Below, piece by piece: positions 7,365-61,487 of a stretch of DNA of 64,000 nt. Position 1 is the stretch's first letter. The number at the start of each line of letters is the position of its first letter. The position numbers and the translations under genes were made by a program. The stretch comes from Candidatus Bathyarchaeota archaeon. Lineage in GTDB: Archaea; Thermoproteota; Bathyarchaeia; Bathyarchaeales; Bathycorpusculaceae. The DNA lies in contig CAWDYC010000004.1 of NCBI GenBank assembly GCA_963806535.1, forward strand, positions 256,001 to 320,000, in the 5' to 3' direction. The notes under the pieces were generated by a model. The model was not told the DNA's origin. It made no database searches and worked only from the letters and a program-made list of their open reading frames with translations.

Positions 7365-7818
7365 TTAGCTGCTTTCAGTATCTCTCCAAGAGTCCATTGT
7401 AAAGCTTGTTAGTGCCCAGTGCCAACCTCTTTTTTCAGCTGCCTTTTCTCCGAATTCTTTTTCCAAACGCTTGTTCATTCTCAGAATTCTTCGACTTATT
7501 TGATGACGAGTAACTTTAAAACGCTCAAGTTTGGTAGCCAAATCCTTGGGCAACAAACCAGGAGAACCTGCCTCAAAAAGAGCCTGAAGAATCTCGCGGT
7601 CAATCTCATCTAGGCAAGCAACACGCTCAATCAGCGACTTGTCAAAATTGAAAGAATCTTTCAAGTCCTGCAAAGATTGTGCGTAGCATAAGCTTGACCT
7701 CTTCAACTCTGCCAAGAGTCTGTTTGAGTAGCTGCTGATTATACTTTAAACGACCTATCTTGTCGCTTTGACTGCGCTTCTTTTTGGGGTTTTGAACAGG
7801 TTTTTCAGTTGTTTCCAT
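7365..7818 (-). CDS. wHTH protein (frameshift ~7710)
   Basis: ORFs 7642-7830 and 7365-7715 join; DEIDREILQALF...LLPKDLA...RGWHWAL winged helix. Confidence 0.6.
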
Positions 7819-8005
7819 ATCAGAGTGCACACTCCAAGAATTCTGTCAACATCAATACAAGGCAAAATTGACAGTGGGTAATCAGGACCAACTAATTGCA
7901 GAAAAGTGACTTCCGAAAAGCATGGACTTTTCCCATGCCTTAGGGTATGCGCTGAAATGGCTTTTGAACAGGTTTTCACTGCCATTAGCGCAGAAATAAG
8001 TGAAG

Positions 8006-8956
8006 TCAAACGGTGTACTCCCCAAGTTTTCTTTGTCCTTCTGCCAGCTTTTTCGGGTCAGCTTCAAAATTGTCTACTTGCCCAAGGGCTTCGATTAGCC
8101 GCTCAAATTTAATCTCAAGCCGATCCACTTTCTTGTCGATACGCTTGACTTTCTCTGGCATCTGCATGTAATCAATCGCAGCATCCTTGCCGATGTTCTC
8201 AAGTTCGCCCTCGCCCCAACTGTGATCAATCTTGCGACGCCCCGCTCTTACGCTAAAGTATCTGCCAAACAGTTTTGCAACAGGATCCTCAACAGCCATT
8301 TCGCCGCCGACAAACGCTCCCTCAGCTAAGACAACCCCGTATTTCTTCGCCAAAGCCACCGCAATACGATTACTCAGGTTCATGGCTAAACCGTAAACTT
8401 CCGCAGGATTCTTACCCCGAATCACTGGCACGTGAACAATCCAACTTTTTGAAGTATGCCTAACCTTAACACCCTGTTCCAAACCCAAAAGAGCCGTCCA
8501 ATTCTGCATCTCCACAGGCTTGAACTGCCCATCAGGATAACGTCCCTCTGCCAGAATCTTAAACGACACCTGACACTTGTCCAACCTATGCAACTCGCCA
8601 GGAAACACCCTGCCCTCACATGACTTGAGAAGATTTGAGCCCTCAGTTGTAAGAGCATAAAAAGTTGCACTGCTACGCTTCTCCTGGTAGATTAGGCCAG
8701 CTTTTTCTAACTTGCCGATATAGTACCATACGTGGGAACGGCTTAAACCCAAGATTCTGCCAGCTTGCGTAGGGTAATCACCTGCATAAATGCGCTTCAT
8801 CAAAGGAAGAACCCATGTGCGGACTTTATCGCTATCAAACTGCACGCAACCTGTAGCTTGATGTCTAGTTGTACTTTGAGCATTTTCAGCACCGACTTTT
8901 GTACTTTGATCTTCAACCAAAAAATCAAGCCTCCATCCAGCTGGATAAAGCATCAT
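8006..8956 (-). CDS. wHTH protein with uncharacterised C-terminal domain and coiled coil
   Basis: 316 aa; AGRILGLSRSHVWYYIGKLEKAGLI HTH; HRLD and IDHSWGEGELE motifs. Confidence 0.75.
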   Translation of the reverse strand: MMLYPAGWRLDFLVEDQSTKVGAENAQSTTRHQATGCVQFDSDKVRTWVLPLMKRIYAGDYPTQAGRILGLSRSHVWYYIGKLEKAGLIYQEKRSSATFYALTTEGSNLLKSCEGRVFPGELHRLDKCQVSFKILAEGRYPDGQFKPVEMQNWTALLGLEQGVKVRHTSKSWIVHVPVIRGKNPAEVYGLAMNLSNRIAVALAKKYGVVLAEGAFVGGEMAVEDPVAKLFGRYFSVRAGRRKIDHSWGEGELENIGKDAAIDYMQMPEKVKRIDKKVDRLEIKFERLIEALGQVDNFEADPKKLAEGQRKLGEYTV

Positions 8957-9683: not shown

Positions 9684-9761
9684 TGGCGGGTCCGACGGGA
9701 ATTGAACCCGCGACCCCCGGATTAAAAGTCCGGTGCTCTAGCCTGACTGAGCTACGGACCC
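9684..9761 (-). tRNA. tRNA-Lys(TTT)
   Basis: Acceptor GGGTCCG/CGGACCC, anticodon arm CCGGA-CTTTTAA-TCCGG, GGTTCAATTCC T-arm, encoded CCA. Confidence 0.97.
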
Positions 9762-10609: not shown

Positions 10610-12245
10610 TTGATTTCATGGAAATATACATTTAAACGATTAAATGAAGAATACGATATCGCTAAACGAAAAAAGCAAGCGTTAGATAACCTTTTTGAAA
10701 CCGGCAAAATTTCGCAGTCAACACGCGATTCTTTTAACGGCGAAATCAATGCAGCAATAGCCACAATCGAAAAACAGCAAAAAGAATTAATTGACAGCAT
10801 GGCAGGAAAAACTCAGGAACTGGAAAACCAAATAAAAATGTTAGAAACACTTCTTGCTAACTATGAGATTCAGCATGTCGTAGGCGAAATTGACGAGGAC
10901 ATCTACCAAAGAGAAATAAGCCTACTTACAACAGGGCTAGAAACAACCAAAAACGAGCTAAACACAATAAAACAAGTCACAAACCAACTTTCTCCAACAG
11001 CCCCAGCAATCCAAGCGCCAGCCGCTCCAGAACCAGCAGCCCCAATTGTCGAAGCTGAAATTGCACAACCAGTAATAGCAGAACCAACACCTGTAGAAGC
11101 TCCAGTTGAAGCCGCTCCAATTGAAACTGTAGTAGAACCAGCTCCAATTGAAACTGCTCCAGCTGAGATTCCAATTGAAACTGTAAAAGCAGAAGCGACT
11201 CCAGCGGAAAGCGCTCCAATAGAAACAGCGCCCGTAGAACCAGCGCCAGTAGAAACTGTTCAAGCGCCAATCGAAGCTGCTCCAGTTGAAACAGCGCCAA
11301 TAGAAGCCGCTCCAATTGTTGAAGCCCCAGTTGAAGTTACGCCAGTTGAAACCCCAATTATAGAAACAGTTCCCGTCGAAGCCCCGCCAGCAGAGACAAT
11401 CGCTCCAGTTGAAACAACCCCTGTTGCTGAAGCTGCCCCCATTGAGATGCCAACAGTCGAAGTAGCTCAAATTGAAGCTCCCATAATCGAAGCTGCTCCG
11501 GTTGAGACTCCAACGGTCGAAGCGACCCCAATAGAAGCCCCACCGATTGAAGTTCCAGTTGAAGCTGCACCAGTTGAAACCTCAATTATCGAGACAGCGC
11601 CAGTCGAAGCTACCTCGGTTGAGACAACTCCCGTTGTTGAAGCTACACCAATTGAAGCTCCAATCCTCGAAGTTGCCCCAATTGAAGCTCCTGTTGAATC
11701 TCCAACTGTTGAAGTCGCTCCAACAGAAACCGCTCCAATCGAAGCTGTTCCAGCTGAAGAAGCTCCAATCGCTCCCCCAGAACCAGAAGTCCAAATAATA
11801 AATGAACCAACACCTGAAATTGCTCCTCAAGAACCAGCAGTAACTGAGCCAGCGCCACAAGAACCAATCATAAATATGGAAGCAGCTCCAGTTGAACCAG
11901 CTCCAATAGTAGAGCAGCCATAGTAATTGAGCAGCCAATCGTTGAAGCAGCAAACATTACGCCAACTGAAGTAATTGCTGAGCCAACAACAAGAGCAGCC
12001 AACAGTTGAAGAAGTTCCACTTCAAGATTTTGAAGTTACCGAACCAGTTCAAATTGAAACTACCCTTGAAAAAGTAATGGATCCAACAATAGAAACCATC
12101 TACTCCAGTCATAGTCGAGGAGGCTATAATTCCAGCCCACCCTATGGAAGCGCCCCACGTGGCGCAGACGGAAATGGTAGCAAACGCAGAAGCCGCAACA
12201 ACCGCAACAGAAACAGAAGACTCCAGTGAAGAAAAATCTGAATAA
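10610..12245 (+). CDS. CdvA-like coiled-coil protein with long acidic Pro/Ala/Glu tail (indels after 11920)
   Basis: ~120-aa coiled coil (ALDNLFETGKISQST, IQHVVGEIDED) followed by E-A-A-P-I/V repeats; acidic frame resumes to TAA 12243-12245. Confidence 0.7.
11000..11960 (+). repeat. Degenerate 15-nt coding tandem repeat (GAAGCTGCTCCAATT-like)
   Basis: Pentapeptide periodicity EAAPI/ETAPV/EATPI. Confidence 0.85.
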
Positions 12246-18375: not shown

Positions 18376-18392
18376 TTTTTTACCTTCAATTT

Positions 18393-18469
18393 ATTTAACA
18401 TTGTTAAATTAACTTAACATTGTTAAATAAATACTTAACGCTGTTAAATTATCATTTAACGTGGTTAAA
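18393..18469. promoter_or_regulatory. Four tandem palindromic operators TTAAC-N3-GTTAA
   Basis: Sites at 18395-18407, 18414-18426, 18435-18447 and 18456-18468, between divergent ABC and TetR genes. Confidence 0.85.
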
Positions 18470-19179: not shown

Positions 19180-19233
19180 ATTTTTCGTAAAGCTAAAATA
19201 AAAGTAGTATGTTTTGATTATTCTAATAAGGTA

Positions 19234-19326
19234 ATTCGGGGAGCTGGGAAATTGACCTGGCTGAGAGGGCAACTGTTTGTTGCCGACCCAATGAACCTGA
19301 ACCAGGTAATACTGGCGGAGGGAAAA
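19234..19326 (+). promoter_or_regulatory. TPP (THI-box) riboswitch
   Basis: Conserved elements in order: GGGGAGC, GCTGAGAG, GACCC, GAACCTGA, CCAG-GTAATA-CTGG, GCGGAGGGAA; upstream of a thiamine-related operon. Confidence 0.93.
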
Positions 19327-19329
19327 GAC

Positions 19330-19875
19330 GTGAACATAAATCTAATAAATAAAACAGACAAAAAACAATTTTCTCAGACAAAAAGAGTAGCGTTAACAGG
19401 AGTTATGGCAGCGTTAATTGCTGTTACAACTATTATTGCCATACCTTTGCCGCCCCCGCTCTCAACCATTAATCTCGCGCCTGTAATAATATTCGTAGTT
19501 TGCATTCTCCTTGGACCAATTTTTGGCTTAACCTCAACTGTTATCGGATGTGGCATTGGATACTTGGCTGGAACAAGCCTTGGGACAATAATTGTTCCCC
19601 CCGGATTTCTATACATATACTTGGTTGGTTTAGTCGTTGCCAGAGGTCCAATGGCTTTAGCTGTAGGTGCTTTAAGAAAGAAAAGTGAAATAACAGGGAT
19701 GGTTCTCGGCGTCATTATTGAAACGGCTATTTTCTTTAGCATCGATTTTGTCTTATTTGGGCTTGGATTCGCTGTGTTTGACTTGGGGACTCTTGTTGAT
19801 TTAGTCTTCGTACCGATAACGGTAGCAGTTCTCATTGCTGTAAGAAGAATTTTAGATACCAAGTATCTATCATAG
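19330..19875 (+). CDS. ECF transporter S-component (probable thiamine/precursor uptake)
   Basis: ALTGVMAALIAV, INLAP, LGP motifs and about six TM segments; GTG start 8 nt after GGAGG. Confidence 0.8.
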   Translation: MNINLINKTDKKQFSQTKRVALTGVMAALIAVTTIIAIPLPPPLSTINLAPVIIFVVCILLGPIFGLTSTVIGCGIGYLAGTSLGTIIVPPGFLYIYLVGLVVARGPMALAVGALRKKSEITGMVLGVIIETAIFFSIDFVLFGLGFAVFDLGTLVDLVFVPITVAVLIAVRRILDTKYLS

Positions 19876-31190: not shown

Positions 31191-31338
31191 AGAAGAAGAA
31201 GAAGAAGTGTGCCCCTGCAGGTTTTCTTCTTCTTTTAAAAGCAGAGAAGAAGTAGGATGTGCTATTTCCAGCCGTCCTTCTTATTCTATCAGAGAAAAAC
31301 AACACCCAGTGCTAACACCAACCGTTGTTGTTCTACTA
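31191..31338 (-). repeat. Three-hairpin dispersed non-coding element, copy 1
   Basis: About 90% identical (manual alignment) to the reverse complement of 59281-59425; strand inferred from G-U pairs and a GAAA loop. Confidence 0.9.
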
Positions 31339-31519
31339 AATTAGCTTCTTTAAAAATACATGCAGCCGTTTGAGCTCCAAAAGAAATGGTTTCTTTCCGA
31401 ACAATTGTGTCGCAACTTTGCTTTTCTTATTCTTTCGAAACCGTATTTCATAACAATATTAAATAAGCAAATGAAGCTTTTGTTTAATTGAGCTTTGTTG
31501 AAACAAAGCAGGAAATTTT

Positions 31520-34333: not shown

Positions 34334-34448
34334 AATCTTTCGCCTTACTAAGGCTTGGAAGCTTGGTTTTGGATATAAGAATTTGTGATTGCAGACTAAC
34401 AGTCATAACAGATAATTGGCGGTCTTTTTCACAAATCAGATTTGGTTA

Positions 34449-34508
34449 TGGTGATGAGGGTAGGATTCGAACCTGCGAACCCCCGAGGGAAAGGATATTT
34501 CATTCAGG
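34449..34508 (-). repeat. Degenerate copy of the tRNA-Leu 3' part (att relic 1)
   Basis: tggtgatgagggtaggattcgaacctgcgaacccccgagggaaaggat resembles 35412-35459 and extends into the intron. Confidence 0.85.
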
Positions 34509-34520
34509 TGCTAAAGTCAA

Positions 34521-34745
34521 CTATAATCGAAATTCTTTTTCACCAATTTCGAGTTGCTTTTCCAACGTTTCTTTGTAACGGTCTACTTGGTCTTCTTTAA
34601 GGTCATCTTGGCTTACATTTAAAGCCCTCAATAGTTCTTTGTCGCTTAGGTTTACCAGGGTTTCAGCAAGTTTATCGACGAGTTTACGAATTTCTAAGAG
34701 CTCCAAAGCTATGATTTTGAGGTCTCTCTTATCCTCCTCTGTCAA
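34521..34745 (-). CDS. Small antitoxin-like hypothetical protein
   Basis: LAETLVNLSDKELLRAL resembles Phd/RelB-type C-termini; lies between att relics. Confidence 0.5.
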   Translation of the reverse strand: MTEEDKRDLKIIALELLEIRKLVDKLAETLVNLSDKELLRALNVSQDDLKEDQVDRYKETLEKQLEIGEKEFRL

Positions 34746-34839
34746 GACTGTTCTAGCCAACCAAGTCACCGAATAAAGGTTACCCATTTAAGGGTGCTAA
34801 GATGTATTAAAAATTTCACTTCACAAGGACTAATGTAGT

Positions 34840-34870
34840 TGGTGGTGAGGGCAGGATTTGAACCTGCGAA
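34840..34870 (-). repeat. Degenerate copy of the tRNA-Leu 3' end (att relic 2)
   Basis: tggtggtgagggcaggatttgaacctgcgaa versus tggtgctgagggcaggattcgaacctgcgaa. Confidence 0.85.
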
Positions 34871-34873
34871 ACT

Positions 34874-35126
34874 TTATTCGTAGATTGATTTCGTAAGCCA
34901 ACATCCACGAACACTAAATTGCCTTCTTTTTCATCTAAAGAATAGATTACACGGTACTTACCAATGCGCCATCTCCATAAACCTATCAACTCCCCCTGTA
35001 ATCGTGTTCCAGCATAAGGGTCACCAGCAGCTTTTTCAAGTCCTTTCAGAACTTGTTCTTTCCCAGTTTTCGGAAGCTTTTCAAACTGCTATTGAAATTG
35101 TGTAAGAAAATGAGCTTATAGGGCAA
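34874..35126 (-). CDS. RelE/ParE family toxin (indels; absent from the ORF track)
   Basis: MPYKL...DPYAGTRLQGELIGLWRWRIGKYRVIY...VGLR..IYE. Confidence 0.82.
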
Positions 35127-35131
35127 ATTTT

Positions 35132-35341
35132 TTAGTCCTTCAAAAGAGCTTCTCTTATTTCCTCAGGAATAGAAACGGTAATGTATTCTTTTTTCTTATA
35201 TTCTTCAAGCCTTTTCTCTATTCTTTCTAACCCCTCTTTGTCAGAAAGCTCTTCAAGGGAAGCTAGAATTTCTTCTATCCTGTCAAAATGTTCATAGAGT
35301 TCTTTAAGCAAAGGCAACGGAACTGGAACAGTTTGTGTCAT
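35132..35341 (-). CDS. Putative antitoxin
   Basis: Small acidic protein (ILASLEELSDKE) directly upstream of the RelE gene. Confidence 0.65.
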   Translation of the reverse strand: MTQTVPVPLPLLKELYEHFDRIEEILASLEELSDKEGLERIEKRLEEYKKKEYITVSIPEEIREALLKD

Positions 35342-35411
35342 CCAAAGGCTCTCGCACAATAAATTATGCACTCAAGTAATTAATGTTGTTTCCGAAGCTT
35401 GAGAAAGTTTA

Positions 35412-35561
35412 TGGTGCTGAGGGCAGGATTCGAACCTGCGAACCCCTGCGGGAAAGGATTTCCCATCAGGCCTTTGCCGGCCAAATGTTAGATCTTGAGT
35501 CCTTAGTGGAACACGCTCGCAGCATATTCTTTCACCTTTGACCTGGCTTGGTTACCTCAGC
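35412..35561 (-). tRNA. tRNA-Leu(CAA) with two introns (35503-35530 at 28/29; 35460-35493 at 37/38)
   Basis: Acceptor GCTGAGG/CCTCAGC-ACCA; spliced anticodon arm AAGGA-CTCAAGA-TCCTT; long variable arm; BHB motifs at both introns. Confidence 0.92.
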
Positions 35562-53246: not shown

Positions 53247-53881
53247 TTACTCGTTTTCTTCTTCTTGTTCTATTGGCTCTTCTTCCTCGGCTTCTTCTTT
53301 TGGTTCAGCAGTTTCTGCTTTTTGTGCATCACTCGACAAAATCATCGTTATCAAGTGCTTTCTGGTCTACTTCTGCCCTTGTTCTCCAATCCAGAAACAA
53401 CAGCCCATTATCATCTTGCCCAAGGTAGCCGTAGCGAATGTAGCGTTCAATGTTTAAGCCGATTTTCCAGTTAGGCATTTTTTCGCTGAGCAGTTTCTCA
53501 ACGTCTTTTCTTGGTGCTTGCCCTTTCTTGCTAATTATATATGAGATTGTTATGGCTAAGCCTGCTAAATCGTCAATGCGCCAACCCATCAACTTATCCT
53601 TTGTCTGCAAGTCGCCGCGCAAGAGCAACATAGAATCTTGCTTTATCAAGCTCTTCTATCGTGGGTTTTTCTGGGGTTTTTTCTTCTTCAAAAATTGTTT
53701 TAACCTGCAAATCCAGCGGTTTCAGGTAGTCATCAAGTAGATCGAGCACTTTAGGGTAGTCTGAACCTAATGCTTTGTGCAGTTCCCAGCCCTTAACTCC
53801 TGGTTTCTGATGTCGCTTGTAGAAAAGCATCTGAGTTGCCTTTTTGATTTTGCTGCCGTAAACACCTTTTTTCTTGCTCAA
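53247..53881 (-). CDS. Putative kite (tandem winged-helix) SMC accessory subunit (indels)
   Basis: About 210 aa, two WH-like halves (GWELHKALG; IERYIRYGYL...LFLDWRTRAE), acidic tail; coupled to the kleisin gene. Confidence 0.6.
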
Positions 53882-54706
53882 TCTAATTCGCCTCTTTTCC
53901 ATTTCTGCCAGTCTTCATATGAGATGGCGATTGGAACTGATGTTGACTGCTGAGTTAGTAGCTCTGTTCTGGGTTGGCTGAAAGGTTTTATGAATACCTC
54001 TTCCTCTAACCTGTCAATCTCCAGTGTTGCGTAGCCATAGGTTACAAGAAAACTTGTTAGGAATGCTCTTTGAACTGTTTGTTCATAGGTGTCAGCACCA
54101 ATAAAGTCCCAGTAATGAATTTTGCCATCTGTTCCTTTATTTGCAACACAGGCTTTCAGTTCCTGCCAGTAAATATTTAATTCGTCAGAAAATTCTTTAT
54201 CACTTAGAACACGCTGCTTTATCAATTCCTCTCTGCTTGCAAAAGCATTTGAAACCTCGATTGCTTCAAAATCTTTCCATCTTTCATTAAGAGGAGATAA
54301 CGCTTCCCAGTAAAGCAGTCCCTGTGCTAAAGTGTTAAGGCTTATTTGTTCAAACTCGATCAGTGGGTTCCAGGCTTTAAGAAATGCATTAACCATTTCT
54401 TGTTTGCCGATTTGGAGGATTTTTTCTTCCAAGAAGAAAAGGGTCAGTGTAGAGCAGAGATGATCGTTGTTTAACCCATTCGCTTTGAATTTTGATAACA
54501 GTGGCTAAATGGTGGAGCGCTTCTGCGTCAAGTCTTAACTCGTCAGGGTTTTGCCAATGAGGAAAATATTCTCTTACAACTTTGATGATTTCATCAATGT
54601 TTAATGTGAAAGGGTCAACCGTGTGGTTTTCGATGGCGATGCACATTTCAATTATGCGTTCAAGCCTTTCCTTGCCCAATGTCTTAGCATGTTTTGCTAC
54701 CTGCAT
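53878..54706 (-). CDS. ScpA/kleisin-like protein (frameshift ~54430)
   Basis: VDPFTLNIDEII...AEALHHLATVIKIQSE N-terminal motif; C-terminal WH (RAFLTSFLVTYG). Confidence 0.7.
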
Positions 54707-56634
54707 TACGCCACAACCTCACTTACAACTGATTTTCCTTCAATATTTTGAACTGTAATCACGTTAGCGTCTTGCTGGGCAAAGGTGATTTGGCTTGGAG
54801 TGATGACGACGTATTGGACGTTTGCATCTTTAATTGTGGAAAGAAGAACTTTCGCAATCATTTCTCGGTTTTTAGGGTCCATATGAATGTCATATTCATC
54901 TACTGCTCGGAATGGGGAGCGAACGTGCTGTTGCAGTGCTAAGAGAAAACTCATGGTTGCTGTAGTTCGTTCGCCGCCACTTTGGGTGTAAGCGTCAAGA
55001 GCCACTGGTTTTCCGCCTTTGAATCCGACAAATATTTCTAAACCAGCTGTTTCAATGTCTTGAGCGTTTGAAAGTTTCACTTCGCCAGTTGCTAAAGTTT
55101 GGCTCATAATCCGCTGGTACTCCACATTTACGCGGTCAAGCAGGTTCTCCATGACTGTTCGCCATGATTGCATTCGGTTTTGACTTCTTCAAGGGTTTTC
55201 TCGCGGTTTTCAGCCACAACCTGTGCTTTCTCTTTCAGCTCCAGATAAAGTTTCGAGTAAGATTCGTATTGGCGTTCGATGTCTTCTGAAACATTTACAA
55301 GTGCTGCTAAATGGCCGTCTGTTAAGCGGATTTCGTCTTGGATGTCAGGAGCGCTTTTTAAAACTGCGATTCTTTCACCGGACAGCCATTGCTTTTTGAG
55401 TTGTTGCCGTCAGATTTTCTTGTGCTTCTTTCAGCGATTTCTCAATATCTTTTATGGTCAACGATGGCGTTTGCCCGCTTATACTCAAGCATGGCAAGAA
55501 TTACACTGTTTATCCAACACTTCGTCTGTAACCTTGTCAGATGAATCTTCCAAGTTGAGCATTTTTGCTTGATTTTCTTTAATTTGCTCGTTTGTTTTGG
55601 AAACTTGTTGCTCTGAATTTTTGAGCATTTCTTTGAGGTTTTCAGTTCTGAAGAGTTTAAGTTGGTTTTTGCTGCCTTGAATTGCCTGCTGTAAAACCTC
55701 TGCTTCTTCAAGCAATTGTCCAATGAGTGATTGTATTGATTGGTTTTGTGCGATTTCATTTTCAAGATTTAGGCGTTCATCAAAAGCTGTTCGGGTTTCT
55801 TTTTTGAGTGTTTCCCGCTCATTTTGTTGACTGTTCAGCTTGTTGGTTACGGCTATTTTTTCCTCTTCAATTTTGCGTCAGTGCATCTTGGTTTTTGTTT
55901 AGGTTGGCTTGTAAGCCTTTAACTATGGTTTCGCGTTTTTCAACTTCTGCCCAAGATAGTTCACGTTCTAAAAATCGACGTTTAATCTGAAGTTGCTTTT
56001 TCTCTTGGTATTTTTCGTATTGTTCACGCCAATAGTTGAGGGTTTGCTGGGCTTGCTCTAAAAGTTTGCCGACGGATTCTTCTTGCGTTAGAATGCGCAT
56101 TAATTTTGTTTTTGCTTGCAGGACGTTTTCGCGGAAAGGTTCTAAGCCGACAGCTGCTTCAACAATGCGCAGTTTTTCTATGTTGCTAAGAACAGTGAAT
56201 TGTTCAACCATGTTTTGATGCATGATAATTAGCATGTTGTCTGGGTCAACGCCGAACCTGCCAAGTAACCGTTCAACATCCTGTTTGCCGACGGCTCGGT
56301 TTTCCAGTTCAAACCCATATTTGCCGTCTCGGCGCAATACCCGAGTTAGGAAAAGTTGGTCTTTTGAGTATTTTGGTACTGGACGTTTGTTTCCCTGTTT
56401 GCTGTTGTCTAAAATTAGTGTTACTCTTGCTTGGTCATGTCCCCATCGGATTAAATCGCTGAGTTTCCTTGAGCGTTCCGTGTATGATTGACCTAAACCG
56501 ACGGAAATGGCTAAAAGCAAAGAGGATTTTCCTGCGCCGTTAGGTCCACCAATTACGTTTACGCCTTGCTTAAACGGCACTCTAGCGTATTCATAACTCA
56601 TGAAATTTTCAAGTATAACCTCTTGAATTAACAT
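54706..56634 (-). CDS. Short SMC-family ATPase, SMC5/6- or ClsN-like (indels)
   Basis: LENFMS, GPNGAGKSS, MHQ Q-loop, QSGGERT, SPFRAVDEYDIHMD, ITP. Confidence 0.88.
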
Positions 56635-57908: not shown

Positions 57909-58721
57909 TTGGCTGAAAACAATTGCAACAATCAAACAAACTCTCGGTGCTGACCTCTACCAACATTAGCGGAAGCTGCAACGCTTGATTGAGAAATCTT
58001 TTGTCCAAAGAAGAACTCTCATCGTTGCAGGCACATGCCACGTGCATTACGTTGGCAGAGCAAGCTCAACTCTTGAACTTGGCGAACGCATCCTAATCAT
58101 CAAGTCTGACGGGTCGCTTCTTGTTCACCGCCCAGTCGGCTATGAACCAGTCAATTGGCAACCTGCAGGCAGCGTTTTCCATGTCCAAGTCAAAGACGAA
58201 GAGCTGGAGGTTCATGGAATTCGGCAAAAGCCACATGAAAGCGTTCGCGTCACATTCGAAAACATCTATATGGTCTCTGCCCTCAACTTGTCAGATTCAG
58301 GAGATTTTCTTTTACACGCAAGCGAAGACGACATGCATCGAGCCATTCTTCTTAAACCTGAACTTCTCGAAGAAGGCTTCAAACCGATTAGCTGGGAGAA
58401 AAAAGTTGAGCCCGGCTTCGTAGACATTTATGGCGAAGACAAAAACGGCAAACTCGTCATTGTTGAAGTTAAACGAAAAACTGCTTCAAAAGAGGCTGCG
58501 TCTGCAATTGGCAAAGTATATTGAACCTATCAAAGCCAAAGTTAACCGAGAAGTCCGTGCTGTGCTGGTTGCCCCTAGCCTTGCTAAAGATGTTCAGAGA
58601 CTGCTGGTTACACTTGGGCTTGGAGTTTAAGGCGCTTGACCCGAAAACCTGTGCTGAAGTTCTTAAGAAAACTGAAAACTCAAAGCTGGAGTCATTCTTC
58701 AAAGAAAAAGACTCGATTTAG
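57909..58721 (+). CDS. nucS: Endonuclease NucS/EndoMS (indels)
   Basis: CHVHYVGRASS, KSDGSLLVH, PVNWQP, SEDDM, GFVDI, VEVKR. Confidence 0.9.
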
Positions 58722-58776: not shown

Positions 58777-59190
58777 CTAAAAATTGAAAGTATCACAAGA
58801 AGAACAGCAACCCCAATTTTGAGGATTGTAAACGCTTGAATTGTGGAAACAAGTAAGAATTGCAGCTGGAAAGGGACCGATTAGAATATAGAAGAAGATG
58901 GCTGTAGGTAATTTGTAGTTATATTTGTAGTCTTTGAGGCTGCGTTTCCCAAAGTACAATGCTGCTAATCTGCCTAAGCCAAAGGTGCATTTTTTGCAGT
59001 TGTAGCATGGTCGCAAGCAGCCCAAAAACTTCAGCACACCATAAATGGCAATGAGCGCAACCAAAAGAAACACCACTCCAGCTGCCAGATTGATGAGCAG
59101 GAAAGCTACAGTGTCTAATGCAATCCAAAAGGCAAGAGCAAGGTTGCCGATTATTGTGAATTTTTTTGGAAATTCTATGGTTTCGCTGAT
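58777..59190 (-). CDS. Cys-containing membrane protein (start and end uncertain)
   Basis: TM segments plus CLRPCYNCKKCTFGLGRL; frame is open upstream of the tracked start. Confidence 0.6.
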   Translation of the reverse strand: MSETIEFPKKFTIIGNLALAFWIALDTVAFLLINLAAGVVFLLVALIAIYGVLKFLGCLRPCYNCKKCTFGLGRLAALYFGKRSLKDYKYNYKLPTAIFFYILIGPFPAAILTCFHNSSVYNPQNWGCCSSCDTFNF

Positions 59191-59280
59191 TTTCTCTCTT
59201 CCTGTCAGGTCTTATTGTTTGAAGAAGGATAAGAAGTTTCAAAGTAAATCCACAAGAACAGTACCAAGTCAACAATTCGT

Positions 59281-59425
59281 TAGAAGAACAACACAGTTGG
59301 TGTTAGCACTGGGTGTTGTTCTTCTTTGATAGAAGAAGAAGGACGGCTGGAAATAGCACCGTCCTACTTCTTCTCTGCTTCAGAAAGAAGAAGAAACCTG
59401 ATAGGGGCACACTTCTTCTTCTTTT
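59281..59425 (+). repeat. Three-hairpin dispersed non-coding element, copy 2
   Basis: Stems AGAAGAACAACAC/GTGTTGTTCTTCT, AGAAGAAG-A-AGGACGG/CCGTCCT-A-CTTCTTCT, AAAGAAGAAGAA/TTCTTCTTCTTT. Confidence 0.9.
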
Positions 59426-59622: not shown

Positions 59623-60193
59623 TTATTCTTTTGGTTTTTCGTTATGATTTTCTGGCACAAAAACGGCTGCGGCAACAGTTGTTGTCCATAAACCATTTTT
59701 GTCGCCTGCTGCTGATTGAGTGATGTTAGCTGTTTTTATGATTAGCCCCGTAGTTTTGAAGAGTTGTTTGCGTTCATCCCAAGCTGTTTCTGGGTCAAAT
59801 TGAATACCCATCGTTGTTGCTAGCATTGTTGCTGCTAAATCTTCTGCGTAGTCACCTGCAATTTCGTCTGTTTGCCCAAATGAGTGATGTTCTGAGAGGT
59901 AGCCGTACTGGTTTTTGCCTGAAGGGATAGCAACGCCTATTGATGATGCAACAAGCCTATGTGGTTCATTAGTGGCGTTTCGTGCGATGACAACAAAGGT
60001 GATTTCGCCAGGCTGCACCATTTTCAAGCCTTTCTCTCGTGGAAGCTGCTCGCATCCGGGAGGAACAATGCTTGAAACGCTAACCAGGTTGCACATTTGT
60101 ATGCCTGCGTCTCTGAGGGCTAATTCAAATGATTGGAGTTGCTCTTTATGTTTGCCAACTCCTTTAGTGAAAAAGAAAGTATTTTGGTATCAT
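59623..60193 (-). CDS. pdaD: Pyruvoyl-dependent arginine decarboxylase (indel near start)
   Basis: [34 protein letters not shown] self-cleavage site, YGYLSEHH. Confidence 0.92.
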
Positions 60194-60295: not shown

Positions 60296-61487
60296 TTGCC
60301 ATCACATCAAAGCGTGTTCAAAGACGAAGGCAAGCTTGACATAAACTACATTCCGCAGCAGCTGCCTCACAGAGAAAAAGAACATCGCCTGCTAATGGAG
60401 TTCTTCAGCTTCATTACTCGCTACCCAGAGCGGATGTCTCAACGCGTTATCATAACTGGCGATGTAGGCACAGGAAAAACAGTTCTTGACCCAACATTTC
60501 GGAGCCAACATCACATCAGAAGCTAACAAACGAGCCATAAAATTTCGTTATGTGCATGTTAACTGCCGAGAGTATCGAGGTAGTCTCCAGCCGATTTTGC
60601 ATCATGCTGTAACCGTTTTCCGTCCAAAGTATCCAGCACGTGGCTATTCTGCAGACGAAGTTCTATCAACATTAATGCAGGTTCTAGATGAAGAAAACGC
60701 TTTCATGGTGTTGACCCTTGACGAGTTTGATAGTCTGATAGAAAATGAAGGTTCGGATGCTGTTTACAAACTGACGCGCCTGCAGGAAATGCGCCAAGGC
60801 AAACCTCAAAGGTTGTCATTTATTTTTATTATGCGTGATTTGAAATCGCTTGAAAAGTTGGATGATAGCGCACGAAGCACTCTTCAACGTAGCATTATAC
60901 GTTTAGAGCGTTATGGCAAACCTCAGCTTGTTGACATCTTGAACCAGCGTGTTTCTATGGCTTTTGAATTGGGAGCAGTTGAGGAAGATGTTGTTGATTT
61001 GATTGCTGAGTTGGCTTTCAGTGAGACGGGAAATGCCCGTTTTGGAATTGAGTTGTTGTGGCGCTCTGGGAAATATGCTGATGCCGAACAAGTTGGAATG
61101 GTTGGAGCTGAATGTGTTCGCTTGGCAGTATCCAACATTGTTCCGGGCGTTCGACGTAGTGAGTTAGCGGGGCTTGCTTTGCATGAAAAAATGTTTTTGC
61201 TTGCAGTAGCCCGTTATTTCAAAGAAAATGAAGAAGCATACGCTTTATTGTCTGAAATTGAAAAAACCTACGCAGTCATCTGCGAAGAAATGGATGAGCA
61301 GCCCAACAGCCACACGCAAATATATAATTATGCTCAGTTTCTTTCTTCAATGAAAATTTTGAAGCTAGAGGTTGCAAGTGAAGCTACAAGAGGTAGGTCT
61401 ACAAGGGTTTCTCTGCTTTCGATTCCGGCGAATGAGTTGGAAAAAGAATTAAGCGCTTCGTTGGAACAGGAAAAAAGAATCAGGTGA
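60296..61487 (+). CDS. cdc6: ORC1/Cdc6 replication initiator (frameshift ~60488)
   Basis: YIPQQLPHRE, GDVGTGKT, VNCR, LDEFD, GNAR, RGRS wing. Confidence 0.92.

Follow-up and report, generated by a model that had tools for sequence, protein, structure and literature searches.

A modular hairpin array in Bathyarchaeia with features of a dispersed palindromic repeat

A family of hairpin arrays

A 64,000-nucleotide stretch of DNA from a Candidatus Bathyarchaeota archaeon, referred to here as the window, carries two copies of an array built of hairpin modules of ~45 nucleotides. We lean towards the view that this array is a dispersed palindromic repeat: a non-coding, extragenic element restricted to a lineage within Bathyarchaeia, which is passed on vertically apart from rare copying in trans. 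Module H1 is constant, H2 is a diverged duplicate of H1, and H3 is short-armed and variable. Arrays occur at several loci and in both orientations at one site, the number and order of their modules vary, their presence among related genomes is patchy, and their sequence is conserved above the neutral level. All of this fits a dispersed palindromic repeat: the array is indifferent to orientation at one site, its modules are shuffled, it has been duplicated to unrelated loci and lost in a patchy manner, and it is conserved at the level of sequence.

The family is real, non-random and apparently undescribed. In the literature consulted, mainly open texts without their supplements, neither this kind of element nor any other non-coding element is described for Bathyarchaeia. 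No match to Rfam 15 reached the gathering score (best E 0.12-0.13). Searches with blastn retrieved only two phage records, with a 27-nucleotide match (E 0.1), and no plasmid. The exact two-loop pattern of the window's variant had 0 matches in GTDB species genomes; this pattern misses the homologues described below, whose loops differ, so the count shows only that this particular variant is absent there. A coding function was considered and rejected, as no reading frame stays open throughout the four DNA copies and indels measure 1, 2 and 3 nucleotides. The translation of copy 2 has no homologue of similar length.

Structure of the array

The features of the array and its surroundings are listed in Table 1. 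Both perfect stems that the initial annotation had described in copy 2 were recovered by an unbiased stem scan, one of 13 bp (59282-59294/59313-59325) and one of 12 bp with GAA/TTC arms (59384-59395/59413-59424). The window contains three perfect stems of at least 12 bp, compared to a mean of 0.25 in 20 shuffles, and its single 13-bp perfect stem compares to none in 20 shuffles. The second hairpin (59331-59374) forms 15 Watson-Crick pairs with a single A-A mismatch. Its proposed stem, CTG-GAAA-TAG cap and CA are present in the sequence, but the minimum free energy fold closes the top with two pairs and a 7-nucleotide loop. Copy 2 folds with z-scores of -6.65 (+ strand) and -7.74 (- strand), and none of 200 shuffles was equally stable, which upholds the expectation of a structure beyond that of shuffled controls.

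Pairing between hairpins through the shared GAA and TTC arms had also been proposed, and it is possible on paper but predicted to be negligible in copy 2. Forcing the helix between the 3' arm of H1 and the 5' arm of H2 yields -48.7 rather than -60.2 kcal/mol, a cost of 11.5, and the expected number of pairs is 1.7 between hairpins versus 49.5 within them. Such cross-pairing is predicted to be populated in the homologues at loci L002 (+ strand) and L004 (- strand).

Table 1. Coordinates of the array copies, their modules and neighbouring genes in the window
Feature	Coordinates	Strand	Remarks
Whole hairpin array, copy 2 (H1-H2-H3)	59280..59425	.	homology with other copies starts at TTAG, 59280
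H1, most conserved module	59282..59325	+	12-bp stem (13 here), purine/pyrimidine triplets
H1 (continued)	59282..59325	+	internal loop, 6-bp top with G-U/G-T wobbles (+ strand), 4-nt NTAG loop
Linker 1	59326..59330	.	length 5 nt; each of the four DNA copies has YTGAW
H2, paralogue of H1 judging by sequence	59331..59374	+	top derived here: GAAA loop, 2-nt deletion
Linker 2, variable	59375..59383	.	from the four-copy alignment
H3	59384..59424	.	12-bp GAA/TTC arms, 17-nt variable loop; L004 loop inverted relative to window
Array copy 1	31196..31339	-	90% identity; flanked by uppP and catalase
Hypothetical membrane protein of Bathyarchaeia	58777..59205	-	start approximate; context only
pdaD, pyruvoyl-dependent arginine decarboxylase	59623..60193	-	1-nt frameshift near 5' end; context only
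cdc6/orc1	60296..61487	+	frameshifted in assembly; context only

Genomic setting and distribution of DNA copies

The two copies in the window are 90.4% identical over 146 alignment columns and lie ~28 kb apart in inverted orientation; their similarity ends sharply, and the flanks are unrelated. Copy 1 follows uppP at a distance of 70 bp and precedes the catalase gene by 181 bp. Copy 2 lies 198 bp beyond the pdaD stop codon and sits just upstream of a conserved promoter-like stretch that separates it from the hypothetical membrane gene and belongs to that gene. As noted previously, the genes flanking copy 2 are co-directional, both being on the minus strand, and copy 1 has the same orientation relative to its own flanking genes. 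Frameshifts of one nucleotide are numerous in the window (cdc6, pdaD, smc, RNA polymerase), and single-base indels in the element may therefore be errors. The genes for SMC, an Nse4-like kleisin and further partners (53329-56634, - strand), which are broken by frameshifts, lie 2.6 kb from copy 2.

Scanning GTDB species genomes for cdc6 yielded 62 loci, nearly all from Bathyarchaeia, with a best protein identity of 92%; the comparison set comprised 63 sources and 1.22 Mb. Homologues do exist elsewhere, which was one of the points on which the array could have failed: an HMM, blastn and a covariance model agree on the element in two of the 62 related loci, L002 and L004, and further traces appear in database ORFs. 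Only four DNA copies are present in the 1.22 Mb, with none in the other 60 loci. REP and REPIN families typically have hundreds of copies per genome, and four DNA copies in 1.22 Mb is a low density for a family of the REP type.

The pdaD gene occurs in 50 loci, and its linkage to the hypothetical gene or to nucS is kept in 35, of which two have the site filled. In L004, the array has the window's orientation and is found between nucS and pdaD, which are convergent, the hypothetical gene having been lost; in L002, it is inverted, with the hypothetical gene on one side and pdaD on the other. The window, L002 and L004 belong to one clade with L001 and L003, both of which lack the element. L001 is the closest relative, and its spacer measures 114 bp, compared to 438 bp in the window. 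That two 21-kb loci each have one copy, at the same site, favours descent from a common copy, as far as can be judged from sequence. Insertion at the pdaD site may also have happened independently in separate lineages, which is conceivable because the same spacer houses other insertions in other lineages.

The spacer downstream of pdaD is an insertion hot spot in many loci (for example, L011 7857-8213, L014 5266-5390 and L018 8402-9144). The inserts include tRNA-like fragments in L011, a different repeat common to L012, L014 and L017, and larger ones elsewhere; the insert in L018, L030 and L056 we take, from its motif, to be a pyrophosphatase-like gene. A short GCAAG/CTTGC inverted repeat follows the pdaD stop codon in many loci but is absent from the window's clade. 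Beside the L002 copy is an A/C-rich stretch (8472-8541) with blastn matches in L007, L034, L041 (several), L042 and L045, although nhmmer matched this stretch only to itself.

The reported distance of ~0.9 kb between copy 2 and cdc6 was accurate, at 871 bp from the cdc6 start, and the cumulative GC-skew of the window has its minimum, a shallow one, at 58367. These facts could suggest that the array belongs to a replication origin to which the neighbouring Cdc6 binds. We regard this idea as scarcely credible: copy 1 is 29 kb from cdc6, 60 of the 62 cdc6 loci have no element, and the mini-ORB 13-mer, with the TTCC and GAA cores given in the available portion of PMC1904270, matches the window at 31 positions (up to 3 mismatches) but neither copy. 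Proximity to cdc6 thus looks incidental, and the implied link to this gene is unsupported. A mini-ORB-like motif is found directly upstream of the TATA-like box of the hypothetical gene in L009 4874, L011 7918 and L017 7879 (- strand). These are three of the 16 mini-ORB-like matches in the 1.22 Mb, and may simply be an extended BRE.

Copies read through spurious ORFs

Profiles built from the translated element picked out four proteins in a set of 753 candidates (E 4e-10 to 1.8), and 15 in a set of 1.84 billion representatives. Fourteen of the 15 carry an H1 trace; the remaining one, P0134, is a repetitive protein without such a trace and was dropped. Together with P0033, this gives 19 ORF records called across the element (4 + 14 + 1), by a search that is biased to in-frame, consensus-like copies. 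No Pfam family was detected in the 19 profile-matched ORFs scanned, and we read them as spurious gene calls over the element.

When these peptides are read back as DNA, they suggest arrays of one to four modules in varying order and orientation. P0122 would correspond to H2-H3-H1, P0135 to H3-H1, P0136 to H3-inverted H2-H2-H1, and P0138 to H1 alone. H1 is the constant module. The P0129 array is upstream of the hypothetical gene in the orientation seen in the window, and that of P0033 is also upstream of this gene, probably in the orientation of L002 (a short peptide match, E 0.013). P0131 represents a third type of neighbour, as its flank corresponds to another, unrelated gene found in L034 (E 1.7e-9). 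Of the 19 traces, 17 had flanks without a convincing match.

Module anatomy, conservation and the case for RNA

H1 and H2 are paralogues on the evidence of their sequences. In L002 and L004 the tops of both modules read GGTG-NTAG-CACC, and the lower stems of H1 and H2 differ by two C-G/G-C swaps. The GAAA-capped top of H2 in the window is, by the same kind of comparison, a derived state and a subfamily variant. The 13th pair of H1 in copy 2 results from the absence of one A that copy 1, L002 and L004 have, and which is implied by 13 of 14 peptide traces, a sample biased to in-frame copies; its loss may be a sequencing error. Also, the H1 loop base of copy 2 is T, a minority state found in three of the 14 peptide traces, whereas ten have G and one has another base. 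The 13th pair, the GAAA cap and the loop T are all non-consensus, which overturns the earlier proposal that copy 2 is closest to the consensus and the best seed; L004 is the better seed for a covariance model.

H3 shares the GAA/TTC arms of H1 and H2, with a variable loop of 16-17 nucleotides. The loop of H3 in L004 is the reverse complement of that in the window, with p-values against shuffles of 0.007 for copy 1 and 0.034 for copy 2.

The identity of H1 plus H2 between species is 77-86%, compared to 50-53% at four-fold degenerate sites (417-455 sites per pair), which points to either selection on the sequence or re-seeding from a master copy. The modular hairpin family outlives the saturation of synonymous sites in Bathyarchaeia. 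Across 36 named pairs, 91% of cells in the four copies pair, no pair (0/36) has changed on both sides, and covariation is not above that of shuffles (406/500); with four sequences, the last two counts have little power. The lack of both-sided changes and of excess covariation suggests that it is the sequence, rather than the fold, that is conserved.

We think it unlikely that the array acts as a structured RNA made from the + strand, such as a small RNA or an element that stabilises or processes 3' ends, that is occasionally duplicated with its own function. Its folds are very stable in all four copies (z-scores of -3.6 to -9.3), its conservation exceeds neutral expectation, and the C-G/G-C swaps between the paralogous H1 and H2 preserve pairing. 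Moreover, U-G pairs are invariant, and one-sided changes (G-C/G-U and U-G/U-A) preserve pairing on the + strand. The wobble pairs of the top favour that strand (consensus -24.4 versus -20.8 kcal/mol), a preference that also fits an RNA. However, no both-sided change is seen among orthologues, the array occurs in both orientations relative to the same neighbour gene, and the inversion or reordering of modules would alter any RNA. There is no promoter or TATA-like box at a common distance from the copies on either strand, and no Rfam match at the gathering score.

Archaeal H/ACA and C/D guide RNAs have up to three tandem hairpins. By the usual definitions of these classes, the array differs from both in having no box C on either strand, no conserved box D (CTGA is not conserved), no ACA tails, no pseudouridylation pocket and no Rfam match. 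A bulge-helix-bulge was found in 0 of 2000 sampled structures in each of the eight copy/strand folds.

Binding of protein to DNA and transcription termination

Conservation of sequence without covariation, independence of orientation, a linker fixed at 5 nucleotides and an H3 spacer fixed at about 17 nucleotides are properties that might be expected if inverted GAA/TTC boxes were bound as double-stranded DNA by a host protein (a nucleoid organiser, insulator or regulator) and spread by ordinary recombination. The arrays also sit just upstream of the promoters of the hypothetical gene and the catalase gene. In addition, L016 (3189-3230) and L058 (3181-3220) have a single GAA/TTC hairpin with the arm and spacer layout of H3, ~190 bp upstream of smc and between divergent genes; the L058 match, with E 0.096, does not stand out from decoys of reversed sequence, the best of which reached 0.037. 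This explanation is nevertheless rather improbable in our estimation, since pairing continues down to a 4-nucleotide loop, beyond what a protein operator needs, 33 of the 35 loci with the same gene linkage lack the array, and the core motif is at no other promoters in the 1.22 Mb.

The arrays are located 30-400 nucleotides downstream of stop codons, in L004 between convergent genes, and have pyrimidine runs of 9-17 nucleotides on both strands, all of which would suit a bidirectional intrinsic transcription terminator. According to the available part of PMC8716108, aCPSF1 binds efficiently only where there are two U4 tracts. In copy 2, the minus (mRNA-sense) strand is free of such tracts and the plus strand contains one, and the other copies have one to three per strand. 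Moreover, T-rich stretches immediately follow the stop codons of pdaD and uppP, ahead of the array. A role as terminator is therefore very unlikely.

Comparison with known repeats and mobile elements

The accessible text of bioRxiv 10.1101/2021.07.10.451892 presents REPINs as extragenic, palindromic, vertically inherited and slowly duplicating, and states that they are undetected in archaea. The array resembles REPINs and BIMEs in consisting of extragenic palindromes of ~100-150 bp that occur in several copies, cluster as variably arranged modules, and persist vertically for long periods with decay (PMC3116915, PMC3733652 and the same preprint, each as far as accessible). It is likewise an extragenic, hairpin-forming palindrome in multiple dispersed copies, two in the window and one beside the further neighbour type of P0131. 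REPs, as defined in the accessible part of PMC6006769, have GT[AG]G 0-2 nucleotides 5' of a fully paired stem of 7-20 bp. None of the four copies has this motif at a hairpin foot; wherever GT[AG]G is present, it falls within a stem or a loop, as does GTAG in the H1 loop. The stems also differ, as those of REPs are short GC-rich palindromes while those of the array have GAA/AAC triplet arms. The host is archaeal, the density of copies is apparently low, and no RAYT gene was found in the window or within 10 kb of the L002 and L004 copies. On the favoured reading, the array works like a REPIN or BIME but is not a member of these families, since it has no such foot and no RAYT was seen nearby.

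MITEs, including Duanwu, Qixi and Chongyang of Haloquadratum, are also non-coding, dispersed, stably folded and shorter than 200 bp (PMC3184786, in its accessible part). H1 plus H2 of L004 has a 10-bp terminal inverted repeat; the other copies have only a 7-bp arm symmetry. Unlike MITEs, the array lacks constant ends, as H3 is variable; its internal modules shuffle, and no partner insertion sequence was found in the loci compared. The 25-nucleotide flanks of the four copies contain no direct repeat that would represent a target-site duplication, which old copies may have lost, and a clean empty site was not found.

The lack of a target-site duplication is shared with IS200/IS605 elements, whose hairpins have a constant tetranucleotide at the 5' foot; in the array, TTAG occupies this position in three of four copies. 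This class of enzyme occurs in archaea, where the consulted sections of PMC6006769 report only IS200-type Y1 proteins of subclass 1.1. The array hairpins are, however, ~45 nucleotides long rather than 20-25, they form tandem paralogous modules, and there is neither an identified pair of left and right ends nor a tnpA gene nearby. A crude regular expression for the Y1 signature matched nothing in all 63 sources. Among 82 ORFs of the window, L002 and L004 there is no transposase or recombinase Pfam family, and the remaining ORFs of these sequences are, by annotation or inspection, housekeeping genes.

If the array is a dispersed palindromic repeat, the H1 hairpin in single-stranded DNA would be recognised by an enzyme that acts in trans and only rarely makes new copies. 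An HUH/Y1 transposase is a candidate for this enzyme, in analogy to the RAYTs that act on REPINs. Inversion, deletion and duplication of modules could come about when the GAA/TTC arms that they share recombine with one another or serve as points of template switching, and this shuffling would need no enzyme beyond such recombination. Copies would then persist vertically between transcription units, and any benefit to the host would presumably be independent of orientation; blocking of read-through or of RNA decay and binding of protein are conceivable. A bolder proposal, which we put forward as a doubtful possibility, is that the arrays are the first archaeal counterpart of the REPIN-RAYT system: vertically inherited hairpin replicators with a new recognition code (NTAG loop and triplet arms) that are copied and reshuffled by a putative domesticated single-strand nuclease.

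The family is a concrete candidate for further searches: its H1 model can be applied to public genomes by the hundred, and the genes that co-occur with it should identify the enzyme or binding protein. If copy numbers are low and a partner is absent, the family would be a minor lineage-specific repeat. Should it prove to be an RNA or an array bound by protein, it would nevertheless add a new non-coding element to a lineage that abounds in soils and sediments.

Additional features of the window

A tRNA-Leu-like gene that apparently contains an intron is located at ~35410-35560 (- strand); it was missed by ARAGORN and Rfam, and its identity as a tRNA is our own reading. Two partial copies of its 3' end (34837-34894 and 34446-34503) bracket small genes including a ParE-family toxin, and the region 34446-35560 (- strand) looks like a tRNA-integrated toxin-antitoxin islet. 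Unannotated genes at 7365-8956 (- strand), next to a tRNA-Lys (9684-9761), have no Pfam family and are possibly the remnant of an integrated element. An AT-rich inverted repeat of 18 pairs with one mismatch (18389-18432), between genes for an ABC exporter and a TetR protein, is probably a TetR operator. A TPP riboswitch (19227-19340, + strand) lies where an ECF S-component gene and thiamine-related genes begin, and a CdvA-like coiled coil (10610-11923, + strand) has a long Pro/Glu/Ala-rich repeat tail with a period of 15 nucleotides.
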